A stretch of DNA of 64,000 nt, taken from assembly GCA_964347045.1 (NCBI GenBank), contig CAYFXC010000001.1:1-64000 (forward strand), given 5' to 3'. The stretch comes from an uncultured archaeon (GTDB taxonomy: Archaea; Asgardarchaeota; Hermodarchaeia; Hermodarchaeales; Hermodarchaeaceae). The notes beneath the pieces are model-generated. The model did no database searches. It worked only from the letters and a program-made list of their open reading frames with translations, and was not told the origin of the DNA. A program made the translations under genes and the position numbers. Of the stretch, positions 56,291 through 63,045 are shown piece after piece (positions within the stretch are counted from its first letter, which is position 1; each line of letters begins with the position of its first letter).

Positions 56291-56358
56291 TTGCATCAGA
56301 TCTCAGTGGTTTATATGACTCTATACAAGTGCCTTTCTTAGAAAAACCCCTCAGGAGG
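56291..56358 (+). promoter_or_regulatory. Promoter/RBS of micro-ORF 1 (TTGCA-N13-GTTTATATG, TACAAGTGC, GGAGG)
   Basis: Same elements, with the same TTGCA-TATA spacing, recur upstream of micro-ORF 2. Confidence 0.65.
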
Positions 56359-56366
56359 CAATTTAC

Positions 56367-56405
56367 ATGTATCCACCCCGACCCCCTTGTCCTGTTCCAT
56401 CCTAG
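56367..56405 (+). CDS. MYP micro-ORF 1: MYPPRPPCPVPS
   Basis: AGGAGG 8 nt before ATG, TATA box, downstream T-tract; paralogous to two other micro-ORFs. Confidence 0.65.
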   Translation: MYPPRPPCPVPS

Positions 56406-56431
56406 TTATAACTCATTTTTCCTTTCTTTTT

Positions 56432-58168
56432 TTAGACTTTTGATTTTAACTTTGGTAATGTATTATCGTCCCATTTCCATGCTCCTAGTTCAAAATCATA
56501 ATTTTTTGGTAAAACTGGTGTCTCCAACCCCGAATAAGATTGCCAGACAGGTCTTGCTTCTAGGGATGCATTAATTTCATTTTTTGCAAATGTCTTCCGT
56601 AATGTCGAAAGTACATCTACCGCTTGACTATTCGTAACGTGGGCAAAGACATATGCATATCCGTTTTCAAGGACCACCGCGTTTTGATATGGCAACAAAT
56701 GTAATGTTTTCAAAACATAGTCTGTAACTGTTCGAGGTTCAAAAATGCGAATTAGTAATGCGGTATTAAGTCCAACGTGGTGCAATATTATTCCATTATT
56801 TTTACTTATTTGCAAACGTTCCAATTTCTTTATTCGACGACGATATCGCATATGCATTGACTCTGAAATCCCCAATGTACGGAGTTCCTGTGATGATTGT
56901 GAGGTAACTCGATTTGTTAATAGAATGTTATCAAAAGTACGCCTAAAATATGTGAAATCTTCAATTTGTAACTTAAGCGGGAAGTCGCTTTGTTTCAGAA
57001 GGTCATATGAGTATTCAGCATATTGAATCGGGGATGGCTGATCATGTACAAAGTTTGAATCTAATGACTCGATCCTATTGAGAAGAAGAGAAGAATCAAG
57101 AGGCCATCCCTTTTCTGGAGTATAAGACTCTAAATTCCAATAATTAATATTTTGAGAGTCTGCGATTGCTTGAACGTTTCCTATTCCTTCACTCCGTGTT
57201 AGTTTTTCTAGCCAATCAGAAAAATGCATGCGTTGATTTTGTGGGATTAGAAATCTGCAATGAACCGTGTTGCTTTGTAATGTTTGTATGAAAAAGACAT
57301 ATCGGATTGCTGAGATGAGATTTGATAATCGTTGTGCTATTTTCTTGCTAGTAGCTTGGAAAAAAACCTCTAGTGGAATTAATCCAATCAAGGGCACGTC
57401 AATAAATTTGGACAGACGGAGAAGATGACGTTGTGCGAGGTTAGTTAGATGTTGGCTGAGCCCGGAAACACTCATGTTGAGTTGCTTGGCGAGACGGCTT
57501 TGGTGGAGAGGAGTGATTACATTACTGAGGGTCGTAAGGATTTGGTGTTCAGGATGTGTGAGAAGGATGTGGGTTTCGATCATCCAGCGTTCGAGGGCGT
57601 TAGTATAGGTTGGTGTGGAGAGAGGAGTACCTGTTGTGGTAGGGCGAAGAGTGTTAAGCCAGAAAAGAACTCGGTTAAGAAAGGCCCCAGAGACAACGCC
57701 ATCAAAGAGAGGAAAACCGGAAGGCGCATCATAGACATAATATTGATAATGTTGGGGTGGGGAGACTTGCTTCCAAAGTGTGGTAAGCTCCGTTTTTTCA
57801 ATGGCACTATAATCTCCATATTTGAGACCAAGATAGAGACCGAGATCAGCGGTTTCGGAGATTTGACGTAGGTGGGGTAAAAGAAGGCTAAGGAGAGCTT
57901 CACGCCATATCACCCAGTCTAATACATGCGAGGGAGCTTGTTGAAGGTCTTGAGCGAGAGTTACTTGCCAGCCGCCACGCGGACGTTCTTCTAGTGAAGT
58001 TTCTACGGCTCCAAATCGTGGATAGTCATAGACCAAGGGAAAGTCATTCCATAAGAAGCTGAGAATTCGATCCCGTAGTCGGGGGAGAGGTTCGACTGTG
58101 AGCTCAGTAATTATCCAATCCTGTTTTTTACGGAATTGTTGCATGAGCTCACGAAATCGTTTCGACAC
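56432..58168 (-). CDS. Large wHTH regulator-like protein, paralog A (N-terminal zincin-like domain plus tandem Lrp/AsnC-like modules)
   Basis: QSRLAKQLNMSVSGLSQHLTNL...IDVPLIGL AsnC-type HTH; second degenerate HTH; similar along its length to 58545..60257. Confidence 0.75.
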   Translation of the reverse strand: MSKRFRELMQQFRKKQDWIITELTVEPLPRLRDRILSFLWNDFPLVYDYPRFGAVETSLEERPRGGWQVTLAQDLQQAPSHVLDWVIWREALLSLLLPHLRQISETADLGLYLGLKYGDYSAIEKTELTTLWKQVSPPQHYQYYVYDAPSGFPLFDGVVSGAFLNRVLFWLNTLRPTTTGTPLSTPTYTNALERWMIETHILLTHPEHQILTTLSNVITPLHQSRLAKQLNMSVSGLSQHLTNLAQRHLLRLSKFIDVPLIGLIPLEVFFQATSKKIAQRLSNLISAIRYVFFIQTLQSNTVHCRFLIPQNQRMHFSDWLEKLTRSEGIGNVQAIADSQNINYWNLESYTPEKGWPLDSSLLLNRIESLDSNFVHDQPSPIQYAEYSYDLLKQSDFPLKLQIEDFTYFRRTFDNILLTNRVTSQSSQELRTLGISESMHMRYRRRIKKLERLQISKNNGIILHHVGLNTALLIRIFEPRTVTDYVLKTLHLLPYQNAVVLENGYAYVFAHVTNSQAVDVLSTLRKTFAKNEINASLEARPVWQSYSGLETPVLPKNYDFELGAWKWDDNTLPKLKSKV

Positions 58169-58242
58169 AATTCAGCCTTCCATTTACATGATGATATAAA
58201 ACCGTTAAGCGAATTCTACCTTCCACTGATACTTTTAGTAAT

Positions 58243-58272
58243 AAAAAAGAAAGGGAAACCTGTTCGGTTTCC
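58243..58272 (-). terminator. Hairpin plus T-tract terminator downstream of micro-ORF 2
   Basis: GGAAACC-GAACA-GGTTTCC followed by CTTTCTTTTTT on the minus strand. Confidence 0.6.
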
Positions 58273-58362
58273 GGTATTCAACACACTTGTTCTGGGTGAG
58301 AGTAGTACGTGTTAAAAGCTTCTAAAATTGGATGAGATGGTTACTAGAATCACTTCTATTTA

Positions 58363-58395
58363 TTAAAGAGGTTCTGGTCGACGTGGGGGATACAT
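58363..58395 (-). CDS. MYP micro-ORF 2: MYPPRRPEPL
   Basis: GGAGG at 58407-58411, GTTTATATG at 58444-58452, tandem TAA stops. Confidence 0.65.
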   Translation of the reverse strand: MYPPRRPEPL

Positions 58396-58406
58396 GGTTT
58401 AGGATG

Positions 58407-58470
58407 CCTCCAAGCACTTGTAACCATGTCGAACTCAATTTTCCATATAAACTAAAAGTCACCGTTGCAA
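58407..58470 (-). promoter_or_regulatory. Promoter/RBS of micro-ORF 2 (TTGCA-N13-GTTTATATG, TACAAGTGC, GGAGG)
   Basis: Matches the micro-ORF 1 upstream elements. Confidence 0.65.
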
Positions 58471-58544
58471 AAAAAGCCAAAAAATGTTGTTAGAAATGAA
58501 AAAAATTGTGTAACTTTACAATTGCAAAACCTATGATTGATTAT

Positions 58545-60257
58545 TTAGGGAAGGGTATCTTTTGTCCATACCCAATCCTCACGATCAAAATCATAATTAC
58601 GAATTTGGATTGGCTCAGTGGTCCAACCGTACGCTTCCCAAGCGGGTTTAATCGAAATTATTGATGGTATGTTATTATCTTTGAATAATTGTGAAAGTGC
58701 ATTTTGTACAGATATTGCTGATTCTCTTGGTAAGAGTAAAGAAGCGCTCCCAGTTCCATCATTGAAAATATTTCCGACAATATGTGGAAGTAATTGTAAA
58801 GCTGTAAGTACTCTTTTTGTTTCTTTTTCATTACTCTCGATAAGTAAATGGATTATGGTGTTCAATCCAATATGCATAATACTAATTCCAAGGGGAGGAC
58901 TCATCACCTCGCGTTTTTCCAAATAATTCACGCGGCGTCTATAGGCCATGTGTTGGGTTTCTTTATATCCAGCCAATCTCGCTTCTTCTGCCTCGTAAAA
59001 ACGTGCACGATCAGTTATAAAATACACATCTGTTGCTCTTTGCATATAGATGAAATCAGACGGTTTAATGCTTATTCGCTGAGAAGAGGGTGATAATTTG
59101 AAAGAGTTTAATGGTGGAAGGTGTTGTGTCCATTTTCCACTAATCAGTCTTGAAACATTATCGAGTACAGCTTCCGAATCTGTAACCCAACCACCCTTGT
59201 TAGAATTGTATAAATCAAAATTTCTTGATTGTAATCTTTCAGTTCTGATCCGAATTTCAGGCACGGAAAGATCATGAAGAGCGACAAATTGTTTTACCCA
59301 TTGACGAAATCTTGTAATTCGTCGAATTGGTATTGCGAAATAAGAGATTAAGGCATCATCGAATTCTTGTATTCCTAGGGTGTAACGAATTTTTGAGAGA
59401 ATGTTCTTTAATGAAATTGTCTTCCTCATATCGCTTACAGGGAAGGTAACAGCAAAAGGTTCGAGACCAATTACTCTGAAATTTGTGAAAGATACCGGTC
59501 TTAGTTGATGTTTTTCTGCAAGTCGTTTGATAACTTGACTTATTGTTGGTTGCCTTAATTTGAGTTTGTCAACGAGCTCTGACTGTGAGCAAGTGGGACA
59601 AGAATTTAATCCACGGAGAATTTTGAGCTCAAGAGGCCTGAGCAGTCTGTTATAGTTAAACATCCACCGCTCGAGGTTTGCAGTATAGGTTTCGGTAGTC
59701 ATAGTTGTTAGCAGCTGATTGAAAGGCTTGAACCATCGTTTGGCTTTTCGAAGAAACGCTCCGTCAACAACCCTATCAAAAGAAGCGAATCCCGCCGTTG
59801 GATAATATCGGTAAGTTGGGTAGTCAATTGGCGGAGATACGGTTTCCCAAACTTGTAGGAATCGGTGACGTTGTTTAGGGTTTTTTATTCCATATCTGTA
59901 ATAACAGTATAAACCGAGATCCGCCGCCTGTTCTACTTGACGAATAACTGAGGGAAGATGGAGTAGGTAGGCTTCACGCCAAAGAATGGGTATAAGGTAG
60001 TTTTGGAACTGAGAGAGAAGATTCTGTGAAAGGCTAAGGATCACCTGGCTGTTAGAGTTAATAGATTCAGTAACACCGAATCGCGGTCCATTGAGTTCGA
60101 AGGGAGATGGAATAAAAGTAATAGTCGTATACCGGTCAAGAGGCGGAGATTTTAGAATTTTTTGAAGAGTCGTTGTAATTGTTGTGAATGCTTCGATGGC
60201 TTCCGCTTGTTGGTGATAAATGGAATCGGTTTGATTTGTTGTCTTTTCGAAAGTCAT
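58545..60257 (-). CDS. Large wHTH regulator-like protein, paralog B
   Basis: SQSELVDKLKLRQPTISQVIKRL HTH; shares PRFG, WREA, ADLGLY, VSPP, GF..FD.VV.GAFL, LERWM and NYDF...W.W with paralog A. Confidence 0.75.
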   Translation of the reverse strand: MTFEKTTNQTDSIYHQQAEAIEAFTTITTTLQKILKSPPLDRYTTITFIPSPFELNGPRFGVTESINSNSQVILSLSQNLLSQFQNYLIPILWREAYLLHLPSVIRQVEQAADLGLYCYYRYGIKNPKQRHRFLQVWETVSPPIDYPTYRYYPTAGFASFDRVVDGAFLRKAKRWFKPFNQLLTTMTTETYTANLERWMFNYNRLLRPLELKILRGLNSCPTCSQSELVDKLKLRQPTISQVIKRLAEKHQLRPVSFTNFRVIGLEPFAVTFPVSDMRKTISLKNILSKIRYTLGIQEFDDALISYFAIPIRRITRFRQWVKQFVALHDLSVPEIRIRTERLQSRNFDLYNSNKGGWVTDSEAVLDNVSRLISGKWTQHLPPLNSFKLSPSSQRISIKPSDFIYMQRATDVYFITDRARFYEAEEARLAGYKETQHMAYRRRVNYLEKREVMSPPLGISIMHIGLNTIIHLLIESNEKETKRVLTALQLLPHIVGNIFNDGTGSASLLLPRESAISVQNALSQLFKDNNIPSIISIKPAWEAYGWTTEPIQIRNYDFDREDWVWTKDTLP

Positions 60258-60481
60258 GGATTTTAATTTCCTGTTAATGTTTCTCCCAAGAACATGACTA
60301 CATGAGTTCTTGAGTTCTTAATAATATTCGGAGATTCTGTACTGTAGTTTCGCGTGGAGTTTTTCTATGAATCCGTCTTTGGATGATTGACGCGACTGCT
60401 TGGTCGTAGTCCGGGTGGCTAAGCGATGTGTAGTACGTGGGATGAATTGATGCCTCGTTCATGACGGGCTATGCATTTCCT

Positions 60482-60556
60482 TTATTTGGATCCGACTGCA
60501 AATCGAGGGTCCGGAATTGGACCGGGGGTATAGATTGGTGGTCGGCGCACAGCCAC
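60482..60556 (-). CDS. Candidate Pro/Arg-rich micro-ORF (M)AVRRPPIYTPGPIPDPRFAVGSK
   Basis: GTG start options at 60556/60550, Pro-rich like the MYP peptides, upstream TGCAAC plus TATA-like element; no clear RBS. Confidence 0.4.
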   Translation of the reverse strand: MAVRRPPIYTPGPIPDPRFAVGSK

Positions 60557-60606
60557 TGCGTCCGTAATTTTATCAACATTTTCGATATTCGTTGCAGAAA
60601 AAAGAA

Positions 60607-60684
60607 TGGTAGCGGGGAGTTGATTTGAACAACTGATCTCGGGGTTATGAGCCCCGCGGGATATCCTGGCTACCCCACCCCGCT
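60607..60684 (-). tRNA. Initiator tRNA-Met(CAU)
   Basis: A1:U72, consecutive G-C pairs in the anticodon stem, CAT anticodon, encoded CCA. Confidence 0.93.
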
Positions 60685-60837
60685 AATGGATTGTTGATAG
60701 AGAAGAGCTGGTGAGGTCGATTTAAGCTTTATGCCTTGGTTTTTGTGTTTCTTTTCATCCAAAAAGTTTCGATACTATAGTGCTAAATTTTTGTGGAGGT
60801 TAAATAATAACTTCCATATACATTGCTGGTGAACTTT

Positions 60838-60876
60838 ATGTATCCAAGACCTGGAGACGAACCTGGTCCATTGTAA
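60838..60876 (+). CDS. MYP micro-ORF 3: MYPRPGDEPGPL
   Basis: GGTGA RBS 5 nt before ATG, upstream TTAAATAA, TAA-TAG stops. Confidence 0.6.
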   Translation: MYPRPGDEPGPL

Positions 60877-60908: not shown

Positions 60909-61982
60909 TCAGGTTCTCCTTAGGAGACGAATCAAGGCACGAGGTACTTCTGTATAGGAGTTGACTTTGATATAGCGCCCGCGACCAAGCTGAGCTATGT
61001 TTTTACAGGTTTCTTCTCCTTGGGGATGAGTTCCTGGTGTTTGGAGGACATGGAGATTATGGTATTTTCTAGCATATGGTTCAGGAGGTTCTCCACGGTT
61101 TGCGATACCATCGGTAATGAGAATTGCCCAAGATTCATGGCGATGCGCCCGTTTGAATTGAATGTAAGCGGTCTCAAGTGCATCGGAAATATTGGTGTAA
61201 CCTGCAGGTTCAGTATCAAGTATTGTGTCTACAATTTGATCAATTGTGGTATATTGGTCCATTGCTTTGATGGTACTAGCTACTGTGTTGAAAGCGATGA
61301 GGGCATATTTATCGTGTCGGAGATGATAGGCTGCAACAGCAGCTGCGGTAGCGGCCGTTAGTAGTTTGGGTCCAGCCATGGATCCCGAAGTATCAAGAAT
61401 TATGGTTCCAATTTTTTTTCTTGCAACTCGTTCAATACCTATTATGTCAGAGTAATTTACGTAATCCGGTTTGAGCAGTGTTTCTTCCAGTGTATTATCG
61501 AGGTCAAATTCGTCGAGGCCTGGATGGAATGGAACCTGTTTGATTTTTTCTGGTCGGAGTCCACGCCCAGTAATTCGTAGGGCTGAATGGACTATTGTGG
61601 CTCTAGCGAGTTGTCGGAACGTTTGGCGATATTGTCCTCGAATTTGGTTTCTGAGTTGGAAAAATAGCAAAGGCCCAGCGACATTTCCTTCACGGGCGGA
61701 TTTCGCAATGAGATGAACCCCGTCTTGTGTTGAAATAGCCTCACTTGTTGCAATGGGTTGAAGTTGGGCAAGGGCTTGAAGAGCGGGGATATTTCCAAGT
61801 TCTATGGCAATTTCAGCCATCTCTTTGGCGGTGGGATAATCAAAGCTTCGACCCAAACGGAGATAGTATTGAAAATCGCGTCCGCTAGCTCGGATTTCAG
61901 ATTCGAATAGTTTCTCATCTGAGATGAAGCCGGAAAGCACAATTGGCACGTCATCGGAGGACGGCGCCTCCTCGGTGATCAA
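60909..61982 (-). CDS. VWA-domain protein (CoxE-like MoxR partner)
   Basis: MIDAS DTSGSM, YTNISDAL, LITDG. Confidence 0.88.
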   Translation of the reverse strand: MITEEAPSSDDVPIVLSGFISDEKLFESEIRASGRDFQYYLRLGRSFDYPTAKEMAEIAIELGNIPALQALAQLQPIATSEAISTQDGVHLIAKSAREGNVAGPLLFFQLRNQIRGQYRQTFRQLARATIVHSALRITGRGLRPEKIKQVPFHPGLDEFDLDNTLEETLLKPDYVNYSDIIGIERVARKKIGTIILDTSGSMAGPKLLTAATAAAVAAYHLRHDKYALIAFNTVASTIKAMDQYTTIDQIVDTILDTEPAGYTNISDALETAYIQFKRAHRHESWAILITDGIANRGEPPEPYARKYHNLHVLQTPGTHPQGEETCKNIAQLGRGRYIKVNSYTEVPRALIRLLRRT

Positions 61983-62827
61983 AAATTTGCCAATACTGCC
62001 TTTACCAAAGTTTTGATTACGTCTACAGGTGATTTTTGGGTGTTATCATGAAGTTCAATCTTGGGAACTAAAGACATTATGGCGGCTTCTTCCCAGATGG
62101 AATGACCTTCACCAGGTATTTGTGTATAGAGACTAGCGATGTCGAGAGCCCCTCTGACACTGGCACCGCGTCGAATATCGGTGTAATCTCGCGTGGCACG
62201 AGTAATCGCGACTGCGATATTAACAATTTCCTCATCTTTGATTCCAGTATTCGTATGCACAATGTCTCTCTCTTGCTCTTCGGTGTGATAATCTAAATAT
62301 AGCCAAACGTAACGGTCTCGGAGTGCTTCACCCAGTGGTGTAACTCCTACACTAGCTTCCGGATTCTGCGTTGCAATGATACGGAACCCGTTTTGTGCGT
62401 TGACTGTTCCTAGTTTTGGAACATGTAAGCGGCCTTCATCCATAACAGGCAAGAGAGTGTTTTGTGTGGCTTCGGGCATGCGATTAATTTCGTTGATAAA
62501 TAGGACACCCCCATTTTCCATGGTTTCAACAAGGGGACCGGGAATGAAAGTATTTCGAGTGTAGCCATCTTTTAATACAACAGGAGGATCAAACCATCCC
62601 ACGAGCTTAGCGGAAGTATATCTTTCATCACCATCAACTCGGAAGAAAGTTCGACCTAAATAATCTGCGACCGCTGACGCAATTGTGGTCTTTCCAACTC
62701 CCACGGGACCTTCAATGAGTAAATGTTTATTGGCATTATCAGCGGCCAGACATTGGGTAATGATTTCATTTCGCCCGATGATTTTGTATTTCCGTTGAAT
62801 AGTTGTAACATCTTTGGTTAAAGACAT
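61979..62827 (-). CDS. MoxR-family AAA+ ATPase
   Basis: GPVGVGKT, FINEINR, IATQNP, ALRDR, RGASVRG. Confidence 0.9.
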   Translation of the reverse strand: MSLTKDVTTIQRKYKIIGRNEIITQCLAADNANKHLLIEGPVGVGKTTIASAVADYLGRTFFRVDGDERYTSAKLVGWFDPPVVLKDGYTRNTFIPGPLVETMENGGVLFINEINRMPEATQNTLLPVMDEGRLHVPKLGTVNAQNGFRIIATQNPEASVGVTPLGEALRDRYVWLYLDYHTEEQERDIVHTNTGIKDEEIVNIAVAITRATRDYTDIRRGASVRGALDIASLYTQIPGEGHSIWEEAAIMSLVPKIELHDNTQKSPVDVIKTLVKAVLANF

Positions 62828-62948: not shown

Positions 62949-63045
62949 GCGGAGTTGGCGGAGCGGTAACGCGCTGGACTCGAGATGAACCGGGTCATCC
63001 AGTGACCTTTTGGTCGCAAGGGTTCAAATCCCTTACTCCGCGCCA
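62949..63045 (+). tRNA. tRNA-Ser(CGA) with a 12-nt 37/38 intron (62985-62996)
   Basis: Long variable arm, G73, CGA anticodon, CTCG/CGGG BHB helix. Confidence 0.9.

Follow-up and report, generated by a model that had tools for sequence, protein, structure and literature searches.

In the RRNPP systems of Bacillota and phages (Rap-Phr, PlcR-PapR, Rgg-SHP and AimR-AimP), a tiny peptide gene adjoins the gene of a cytoplasmic DNA-binding protein, and paralogous peptide and receptor sets keep a conserved core and a variable tail. A comparable arrangement is found in an uncultured archaeon of the family Hermodarchaeaceae (Asgardarchaeota), within a window of 64,000 nucleotides (nt) at the start of contig CAYFXC010000001.1, the whole stretch analysed here, whose positions are used below. 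Three proline-rich micro-genes are interleaved there with the genes of two large paralogous proteins, A and B, predicted to be regulators; classes 1 and 2 of the micro-genes flank A in 15/15 loci of the genus, and the peptides likewise combine a conserved core with a variable tail. RRNPP receptors are tetratricopeptide repeat (TPR) proteins, whereas A and B have a predicted zincin-like plus double Lrp/AsnC fold without TPR. RRNPP peptides are made as precursors of 20-50 amino acids (aa) that are exported, cut and re-imported, whereas the peptides described here total 10-13 aa, with no precursor or export signal and no export or import genes nearby. The domain of life also differs.

The nearest analogue for a ligand acting inside the cell is the PatS/PatX-HetR system of heterocystous cyanobacteria, in which a leaderless peptide of ~13-17 residues acts directly on a transcription factor (PMC4649674, PMC7761841). 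The likeness lies in the lack of a signal sequence and, should the archaeal peptides act inside the cell, in direct action on a transcription factor; unlike PatS, the archaeal peptides have no RGSGR motif, the HetR fold is different, and patS is not adjacent to hetR. No description of the present system was found in the papers searched on Asgard or archaeal peptide signalling, on RRNPP in archaea or on small proline-rich proteins, and archaeal small-proteome studies cover Haloferax and Methanosarcina, not this lineage (PMC10117724, PMC11456600). A circuit of peptide plus regulator of this kind is apparently undescribed and would be unexpected in Asgard archaea.

The micro-genes are very probably translated, conserved genes under purifying selection. 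Together with a candidate receptor encoded next to them, they partly support the original prediction, made from the DNA letters of this window, of a peptide-signal system; the reading of the peptides as secreted signals is unsupported. A functional partnership of the peptides with A, B or the neighbouring von Willebrand factor A (VWA) protein is slightly favoured, an intracellular peptide-regulator circuit is our best, though tentative, guess, and direct binding of the peptides to A or B as their ligand is possible but doubtful. The features on which these readings are built are the following.

56367-56405, plus strand: micro-gene 1 (class 1), MYPPRPPCPVPS, convergent with paralogue A
56310-56316, plus strand: TATA box TTTATAT of micro-gene 1, 57 nt before the ATG
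56354-56358, plus strand: Shine-Dalgarno (SD) sequence GGAGG of micro-gene 1
58363-58395, minus strand: micro-gene 2 (class 2), MYPPRRPEPL, on the same strand as A and 194 nt upstream of the A start
58407-58411, minus strand: SD sequence GGAGG of micro-gene 2
58445-58451, minus strand: TATA box TTTATAT of micro-gene 2
58245-58272, minus strand: terminator of micro-gene 2, hairpin GGAAACC-GAACA-GGTTTCC followed by a T run
60838-60876, plus strand: micro-gene 3 (class 3), MYPRPGDEPGPL, convergent with the VWA gene
60828-60832, plus strand: SD sequence GGTGA of micro-gene 3
60767-60788, plus strand: 22-nt motif upstream of micro-gene 3, nearly invariant in all class-3 loci; promoter or operator candidate
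56432-58168, minus strand: paralogue A (578 aa), predicted zincin-like N domain without zinc-binding His plus two Lrp/AsnC-like modules (winged helix-turn-helix, wHTH, and RAM), an architecture taken from the model of B
58545-60257, minus strand: paralogue B (570 aa), same predicted architecture as A, with W93-R94-E95-A-Y-L98 in the HExxH place and D113 on the next helix

Coding signature and distribution of the micro-genes

The three open reading frames (ORFs) of 10-12 aa had been proposed from the letters of the window, and they read exactly so in position, strand and sequence; the three proposed SD sequences and the TATA-like boxes of micro-genes 1 and 2 were likewise recovered. None of the micro-genes is annotated in the gene calls of the fetched public contigs. 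A chance origin is unlikely, since the string ATG-TAY-CCN occurs at 121 sites in the genome (a metagenome-assembled genome of 2.58 Mb in 83 contigs), giving ~0.2 expected sites in this stretch, and a whole-genome motif scan found no proline-rich short ORFs with a ribosome-binding site other than these three. The pattern SD-ATG-T[AG]B-CCN-CCN matches only micro-gene loci in 19 genomes, with 0 matches for the reversed control.

The ORFs are read as translated genes under purifying selection on the basis of several concurring signs. Across orthologues, entropy at the third codon position exceeds that at positions 1 and 2 in class 1 (1.38 vs 0.70/0.87), class 2 (1.17 vs 0.32/0.41) and class 3 (1.10 vs 0.35/0.37). 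Pairwise NG86 ratios of nonsynonymous to synonymous substitution (dN/dS) in the ORF frame are 0.21, 0.33 and 0.16 for classes 1, 2 and 3, as against 1.4-3.5 in the two shifted frames of the same nucleotides, figures that are not independent between pairs since the genomes are related and for which dS is near saturation. ATG, GTG and TTG replace one another as start codons, each of the three stop codons is found, lengths differ by whole codons only, and the leaders from TATA box to SD are not conserved, as opposed to the SD and the ORF. Both CGN and AGG are in use as Arg codons. The three-base periodicity of substitution, dN/dS well below 1 in the ORF frame alone, the exchange of valid start codons, the whole-codon indels, the strong SD at a fixed distance and the unconserved 5' leaders all speak against the sequences being untranslated promoter, operator or small-RNA elements, an explanation that is barely credible. 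Genes as short as 10-13 codons that stand alone and are clearly under purifying selection are rare in any organism, and the result illustrates that functional ORFs much shorter than annotation cut-offs usually allow can be recovered by comparing codons between relatives.

By sequence, the micro-genes fall into three old paralogous classes, with consensus cores of Y-P-x-R-x-P-x-P (class 1), [WY]-P-P-x-R-P-[ED]-P (class 2) and Y-P-x-P-G-[DTE]-E-[PI]-G-P (class 3). The conserved head expected from the window alone does exist; across orthologues it is [YW]-P(-P), at times with one extra residue after Met, and not the proposed 'MYP'. An acidic residue after the proline core is kept in all three classes. 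The peptides are 10-13 codons long in nearly all loci and lack any signal or hydrophobic segment. In three genomes (G005, G006 and G002; L041:374-469, L042:7284-7379 and L043:2223-2318) class 3 has 31 codons and a hydrophobic tail. A membrane-tethered form was considered for these and set aside; the tail overlaps the VWA 3' end in antisense by 11 nt, and on account of this overlap it may be a by-product of a lost stop codon and not a membrane anchor.

The GTDB class to which this archaeon belongs (Hermodarchaeia) comprises 19 species genomes in all. All 14 other species genomes of the genus have the B-A pair, as do 2/4 genomes of the sister genus, and short proline-rich ORFs stand at the same positions in every fetched locus: class 1 convergent at the A 3' end in 15/15 loci covering that flank, class 2 between B and A on the A strand in 15/15 genus loci, and class 3 convergent with VWA, 11-39 nt from its 3' end, in 17 loci. 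The sister genus has a divergent class-3 form 33-39 nt from the VWA end. Five metagenome contigs in which B is only 41-44% identical also carry micro-ORFs, on either side of B, upstream of an inverted A and at the end of VWA. The linkage persists in at least four gene orders, including those with inverted A and relocated VWA; in G011 and G014, VWA and its partner MoxR lie on the A side and class 3 has moved along with VWA.

Micro-ORFs are therefore conserved beside orthologous regulators (in the genus, the sister genus and the metagenome contigs), and conserved at the level of codons, so that neither of the two computational outcomes that were to count against the original prediction, regulators without such neighbours and conservation of nucleotides in place of codons, was observed. 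No such ORF was found at 13 loci of distant regulator homologues in other Asgard families, near the third paralogue of this genome, or, for class 3, at 14 VWA-orthologue loci of other Asgard families. VWA orthologues of ~40% identity are present in 76/121 genomes of the phylum, and, given the 14 loci without such an ORF, the micro-genes track A/B orthologues and not VWA as such.

The arrangement differs from the one proposed, which placed one micro-ORF at the 3' terminus of either paralogue. A has micro-genes on both sides (classes 1 and 2), class 3 is tied to the 3' end of the VWA gene and not to a paralogue, and a micro-gene copy of B's own, upstream of B, occurs only in the sister lineage. 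Micro-gene 2, assigned earlier to the 3' end of B, is more aptly seen as a separate unit ~195 nt upstream of A. In the window, 26 nt separate the stop codons of micro-gene 1 and A, with a T-rich run at 56416-56440 on the 3' side of micro-gene 1, and micro-gene 3 lies 36 nt from the VWA gene by the tblastn end, or 32 nt between the ORF ends at 60876 and 60909. Within the genus, VWA is 81-88% identical as against 49-58% for B, and it is the regulators and peptides that evolve fast at this locus. G008 and G001 have tandem copies of the class-2 micro-gene together with its SD, and G013 has a decayed second copy (L038:4718-4830, L040:2104-2210 and L034:4702-4800), which points to ongoing birth and death of peptide genes. 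By its conservation and gene order, the ensemble of micro-genes, two fast-evolving regulators and a MoxR-VWA pair would be a module specific to Hermodarchaeia.

Transcription units of the micro-genes

Classes 1 and 2 share TTTAWAW with a T-rich stretch at -54 to -61 and GGAGG (mostly GGAGGCAT) at -13 to -16; TTTAWAW is found at -56 to -61 in 15/15 class-1 loci, and every class-1 locus has the GGAGG. In 11/15 loci class 2 is followed, before A, by a perfect hairpin (GGAAACC...GGTTTCC or GGAACCC...GGGTTCC) and a T run, which lie 8-147 nt past the stop codon depending on the locus. The TATA-like box of A lies ~40 nt beyond this terminator, after a conserved motif. Class 1 ends in T runs or in a hairpin common to the end of A, and class 3 has the SD GGTGA and the nearly invariant 22-nt upstream motif. 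With a TATA box near -57, an SD (GGAGG or GGTGA) and a terminator for each, and a separate promoter for A, the micro-genes are predicted to be stand-alone units of ~100-170 nt, not leaders or exons of large genes. A micro-ORF serving as first exon of A was ruled out, with the terminator and the A promoter intervening and no downstream gene for classes 1 and 3.

Very short proline-rich ORFs are familiar as leader peptides (mgtL/mgtP, TnaC and the MAGDIS upstream ORF of SAM decarboxylase), and class 2 likewise lies upstream of a gene with a terminator between. The micro-ORFs might accordingly be cis-acting translational sensors, in which early Pro-Pro stalls the ribosome according to aIF5A, proline or tRNA supply and so tunes transcription or mRNA fate of the neighbours. 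The M-[YW]-P-P starts with further X-P repeats, the position of class 2 ~200 nt upstream of A on the same strand with the hairpin between, the same layout before B in the sister lineage, and the translation genes nearby (initiator tRNA-Met, valyl-tRNA synthetase (ValRS) and eRF1) are all in keeping with such a role. The layout, however, fits class 2 only: classes 1 and 3 have no downstream gene on their strand, and A keeps its own conserved TATA-like box after the terminator. The distance from stop codon to terminator is too variable for a ribosome-coupled switch, and positions other than proline are also selected (R, D/E and G-x-E-x-G), which leaves this explanation distinctly improbable.

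Several further motifs were observed around these units. The conserved motif AATCGGAAGGTAGAATTAG lies ~55-60 nt upstream of the A start, after the class-2 terminator (~58215-58235 on the minus strand), and is found at the same place in seven other loci (L031, L034, L038 and L040-L043); it is an operator candidate. The 22-nt class-3 motif recurs in this genome (G000:C21:5721-5742; L046:2722-2743) inside a conserved coding gene of 301 aa located just upstream of a gene for a B12-binding radical SAM protein, and in 4 genomes not one nucleotide of this copy differs, while the codons around it vary at their wobble positions. The 20-nt core of the motif is also found inverted near the replication origin, beyond the window (G000:C1:68554-68573). 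The recurring motif is a candidate site for some DNA-binding protein.

The recurrence of the class-3 promoter motif at two unrelated places would suit an explanation by which the conserved, translated peptides act on targets elsewhere in the cell (the ribosome or proteins that bind proline motifs, for example) and the neighbourhood only reflects shared regulation or history. Peptides of the polyproline II type are generic ligands of many domains, which counts in the same direction. Against this stand the persistence of the linkage through several rearrangements and the absence of micro-ORFs wherever A/B orthologues are absent, and targets elsewhere are considered unlikely.

Predicted fold of paralogues A and B

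A and B are 30% identical. Their description as two paralogous wHTH regulator-like proteins holds, with wHTH and RAM modules, and can be extended by a predicted peptide-binding-type (zincin) fold; their likening to Rap, PlcR or AimR receptors does not hold, since the predicted zincin plus Lrp/AsnC fold is unrelated to that of the TPR receptors. Pfam searches of the large proteins gave only a MarR/HTH_24 wHTH near residues 210-250, with nothing in the N domain and no TPR. The regulator family comprises 36 representative clusters among 1.84 billion proteins, all of ~530-590 aa and the same architecture, and similar architectures occur in Bathyarchaeota, Thor- and Heimdall-type clusters.

The AlphaFold model of B (pLDDT 88.6, pTM 0.83, from a 25-sequence alignment) contains two tandem copies of a wHTH followed by a RAM domain (beta-alpha-beta-beta-alpha-beta). 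Residues 205-570 superpose on the double Lrp/AsnC protein NirDL (4czc; Z 14.9 over 285 residues; Foldseek E 1e-7), B also superposes on single Lrp/AsnC regulators (Z 8.5 to 2dbb), and a profile search with B (hmmsearch) retrieves PH0061 (E 8.3e-5). The likeness to Lrp/AsnC (feast/famine) regulatory proteins and to NirDL/AhbAB (2dbb, 4czc, 4ch7) thus covers both modules; unlike these proteins, B has an extra N domain of 200 residues and a long linker. The known RAM ligands are single amino acids, and NirDL, a sirohaem decarboxylase, is an enzyme and not a regulator.

Residues 10-203 of B superpose on the M1 aminopeptidase catalytic domain, thermolysin and other zincins. Folded alone, this N domain reaches pLDDT 91.3, and the 50/50 best structural matches are zincin peptidases, the best being 1z1w (F3; Z 9.9, 172 aa, 3.9 A). 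The likeness to M1 aminopeptidase and thermolysin-type zincins, and to the inactive aminopeptidase-like domain of TAF2 (1z1w, 5fwq, 6hqa), extends over ~170/205 residues, and the active-site helix and the following helix of the regulators keep Glu and Asp. Unlike zincins, the regulators lack both zinc-binding His and have no sequence-profile similarity to them, and the set of zinc ligands of gluzincins, HExxH plus a downstream Glu, is not present. In A and B the HExxH place reads W-R-E-A-x-L, with an invariant Asp on the next helix; x-[RK]-E stands there in nearly all of 33 further aligned family representatives (three deviate), and HExxH in 0. With both zinc-binding His absent in every family member, no catalysis is expected of the zincin-like domain. 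A conserved F-G-x-x-E lies ~30 residues before R-E, a spacing like that of M1; its equivalence to the GxMEN exopeptidase motif is a guess, as profile-profile alignment to M1 domains gave no match. In the N domain, 12 aromatic residues are invariant. On the models, the regulators belong to the Lrp/AsnC fold class, and their zincin-fold N domain is no peptidase.

A zincin-type domain, a helix-turn-helix and a sensor-like domain are combined in one regulatory protein or pair in IrrE/PprI and ImmA-ImmR also, and PprI (8slm) was a weak match in the Foldseek search with the N domain alone. The zincins of IrrE/PprI and ImmA-ImmR are active proteases that cut a repressor, as opposed to A and B, which have no metal site and are accompanied by small peptide genes.

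The predicted receptor fold also bears on whether the peptides are exported cell-to-cell signals with cytoplasmic receptors, of the Rap-Phr, PlcR-PapR or AimR-AimP type. Peptide genes adjoining candidate receptors, conserved heads with variable tails, and the tandem duplication of class 2 in two species would be expected of such signals. The fold, however, is not TPR, and products of 10-13 aa in total have neither signal sequence nor pro-region. The lack of a signal sequence had been noted from the window and stands; the possibility raised with it, export by some route, gains no support from the conserved neighbourhood, which contains no gene for an exporter, an Opp-like importer or a processing protease. 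The 'membrane-tail' form of class 3, 31 aa long and overlapping the VWA 3' end in antisense, may be a by-product. Exported signals are very improbable.

A possible intracellular circuit and its neighbourhood

In the tentatively preferred intracellular circuit, the peptides would stay inside the cell and bind A and B. The likeliest site would be the groove of the N domain, peptidase-like but disabled and so perhaps able to hold a peptide uncut, or a RAM interface; binding would then change DNA binding by the Lrp-like modules and thereby control how the module's own genes are expressed. For class 3, the conserved acidic residue may dock on the metal ion-dependent adhesion site (MIDAS) of the VWA protein, either in addition or as the alternative. 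In its fullest form, which is somewhat unlikely, this would be the first gene-encoded peptide-sensing circuit in archaea, with unprocessed proline-rich decapeptides read by a new class of receptor, the metal-less peptidase domain of a double Lrp/AsnC protein, and inputs from three classes that combine or antagonise one another, possibly between cells too. Should the peptides prove to be ligands of their neighbours, a peptide-based regulatory circuit would exist in the archaeal lineage closest to eukaryotes, and its receptor principle, a disabled zincin as sensor, is not known from bacterial systems.

A number of points weigh against the circuit. The zincin assignment is one of predicted fold only: Foldseek with the N domain alone gave no match better than E 0.1, and when the N-domain alignment was compared by hhalign with M1 catalytic domains from this genome and its relatives, nothing was found (E 0.32). 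Double modules of the Lrp/AsnC type can be enzymes instead of regulators, by analogy with NirDL/AhbAB, and B has no micro-gene of its own in this genus. Peptide genes and A/B orthologues have one origin, in a small class; their co-occurrence counts as one evolutionary event, and the conserved synteny might in part be due to slow rearrangement of a housekeeping region (ValRS, tRNAs and MoxR-VWA, with the replication origin nearby). Co-folding of the G017 orthologue of A with its class-1 peptide, in a read-through form of 30 residues and thus longer than the native one, scored 0.02, a value that speaks neither for nor against binding. Among the first 70 codons of this orthologue's open frame (L045:4641-6374) there is no ATG, GTG or TTG; either its start codon is unusual, or the sequence contains an error, or the protein is shortened at its N terminus.

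The gene order in the window is ValRS(+), tRNA-Ala(+), tRNA-Ile(+), micro-gene 1(+), A(-), micro-gene 2(-), B(-), initiator tRNA-Met(-), micro-gene 3(+), VWA(-) and MoxR(-). The features on the side of B away from A are as follows.

60380-60560, minus strand: strongly conserved non-coding element of ~170 nt between the initiator tRNA-Met and the B promoter
60607-60684, minus strand: initiator-type tRNA-Met (CAT)
60909-61982, minus strand: VWA protein (357 aa) with an intact MIDAS motif (DTSGS; VWA_2 E 7e-11)
61979-62827, minus strand: MoxR-type AAA+ ATPase (282 aa), overlapping the VWA start (AAA_5 E 8e-24)

As in MoxR-VWA systems, the gene of a MoxR ATPase adjoins that of a VWA protein with a MIDAS motif; here the two genes overlap. 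This raises the alternative that the peptides serve the MoxR-VWA chaperone pair as substrates, adaptors or MIDAS ligands, with A and B regulating the locus without binding peptides. Class 3 keeps its 11-39 nt from the VWA stop in every arrangement, including those with VWA-MoxR on the other side, and the acidic residue after the proline core in all classes, together with the intact DxSxS of the MIDAS, would suit such binding. The VWA orthologues (~40% identity) at the 14 loci of other Asgard families, however, have no such ORF, and classes 1 and 2 flank A, not VWA; service to the chaperone pair alone is improbable.

The ~170-nt element has long invariant blocks in 9 genus members. It gave no Rfam match, no covarying pair, a fold z of -1.55 and no tRNA even with introns allowed. 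A 'fourth micro-ORF' inside it (60482-60556, minus strand) was rejected, since a 1-nt indel falls within it in the alignment and what is conserved is the nucleotide sequence. One or two inserts (introns) interrupt the initiator tRNA-Met gene of G014, G011, G007 and G012 (L033, L035, L036 and L044), but not that of this genome. ARAGORN reports a 97-nt 'tRNA-???' with a 2-base anticodon at 62949-63045 on the plus strand; judged by position and sequence, this is probably a tRNA-Ser(CGA) with an intron, in line with the call for L047, a syntenic metagenome contig.

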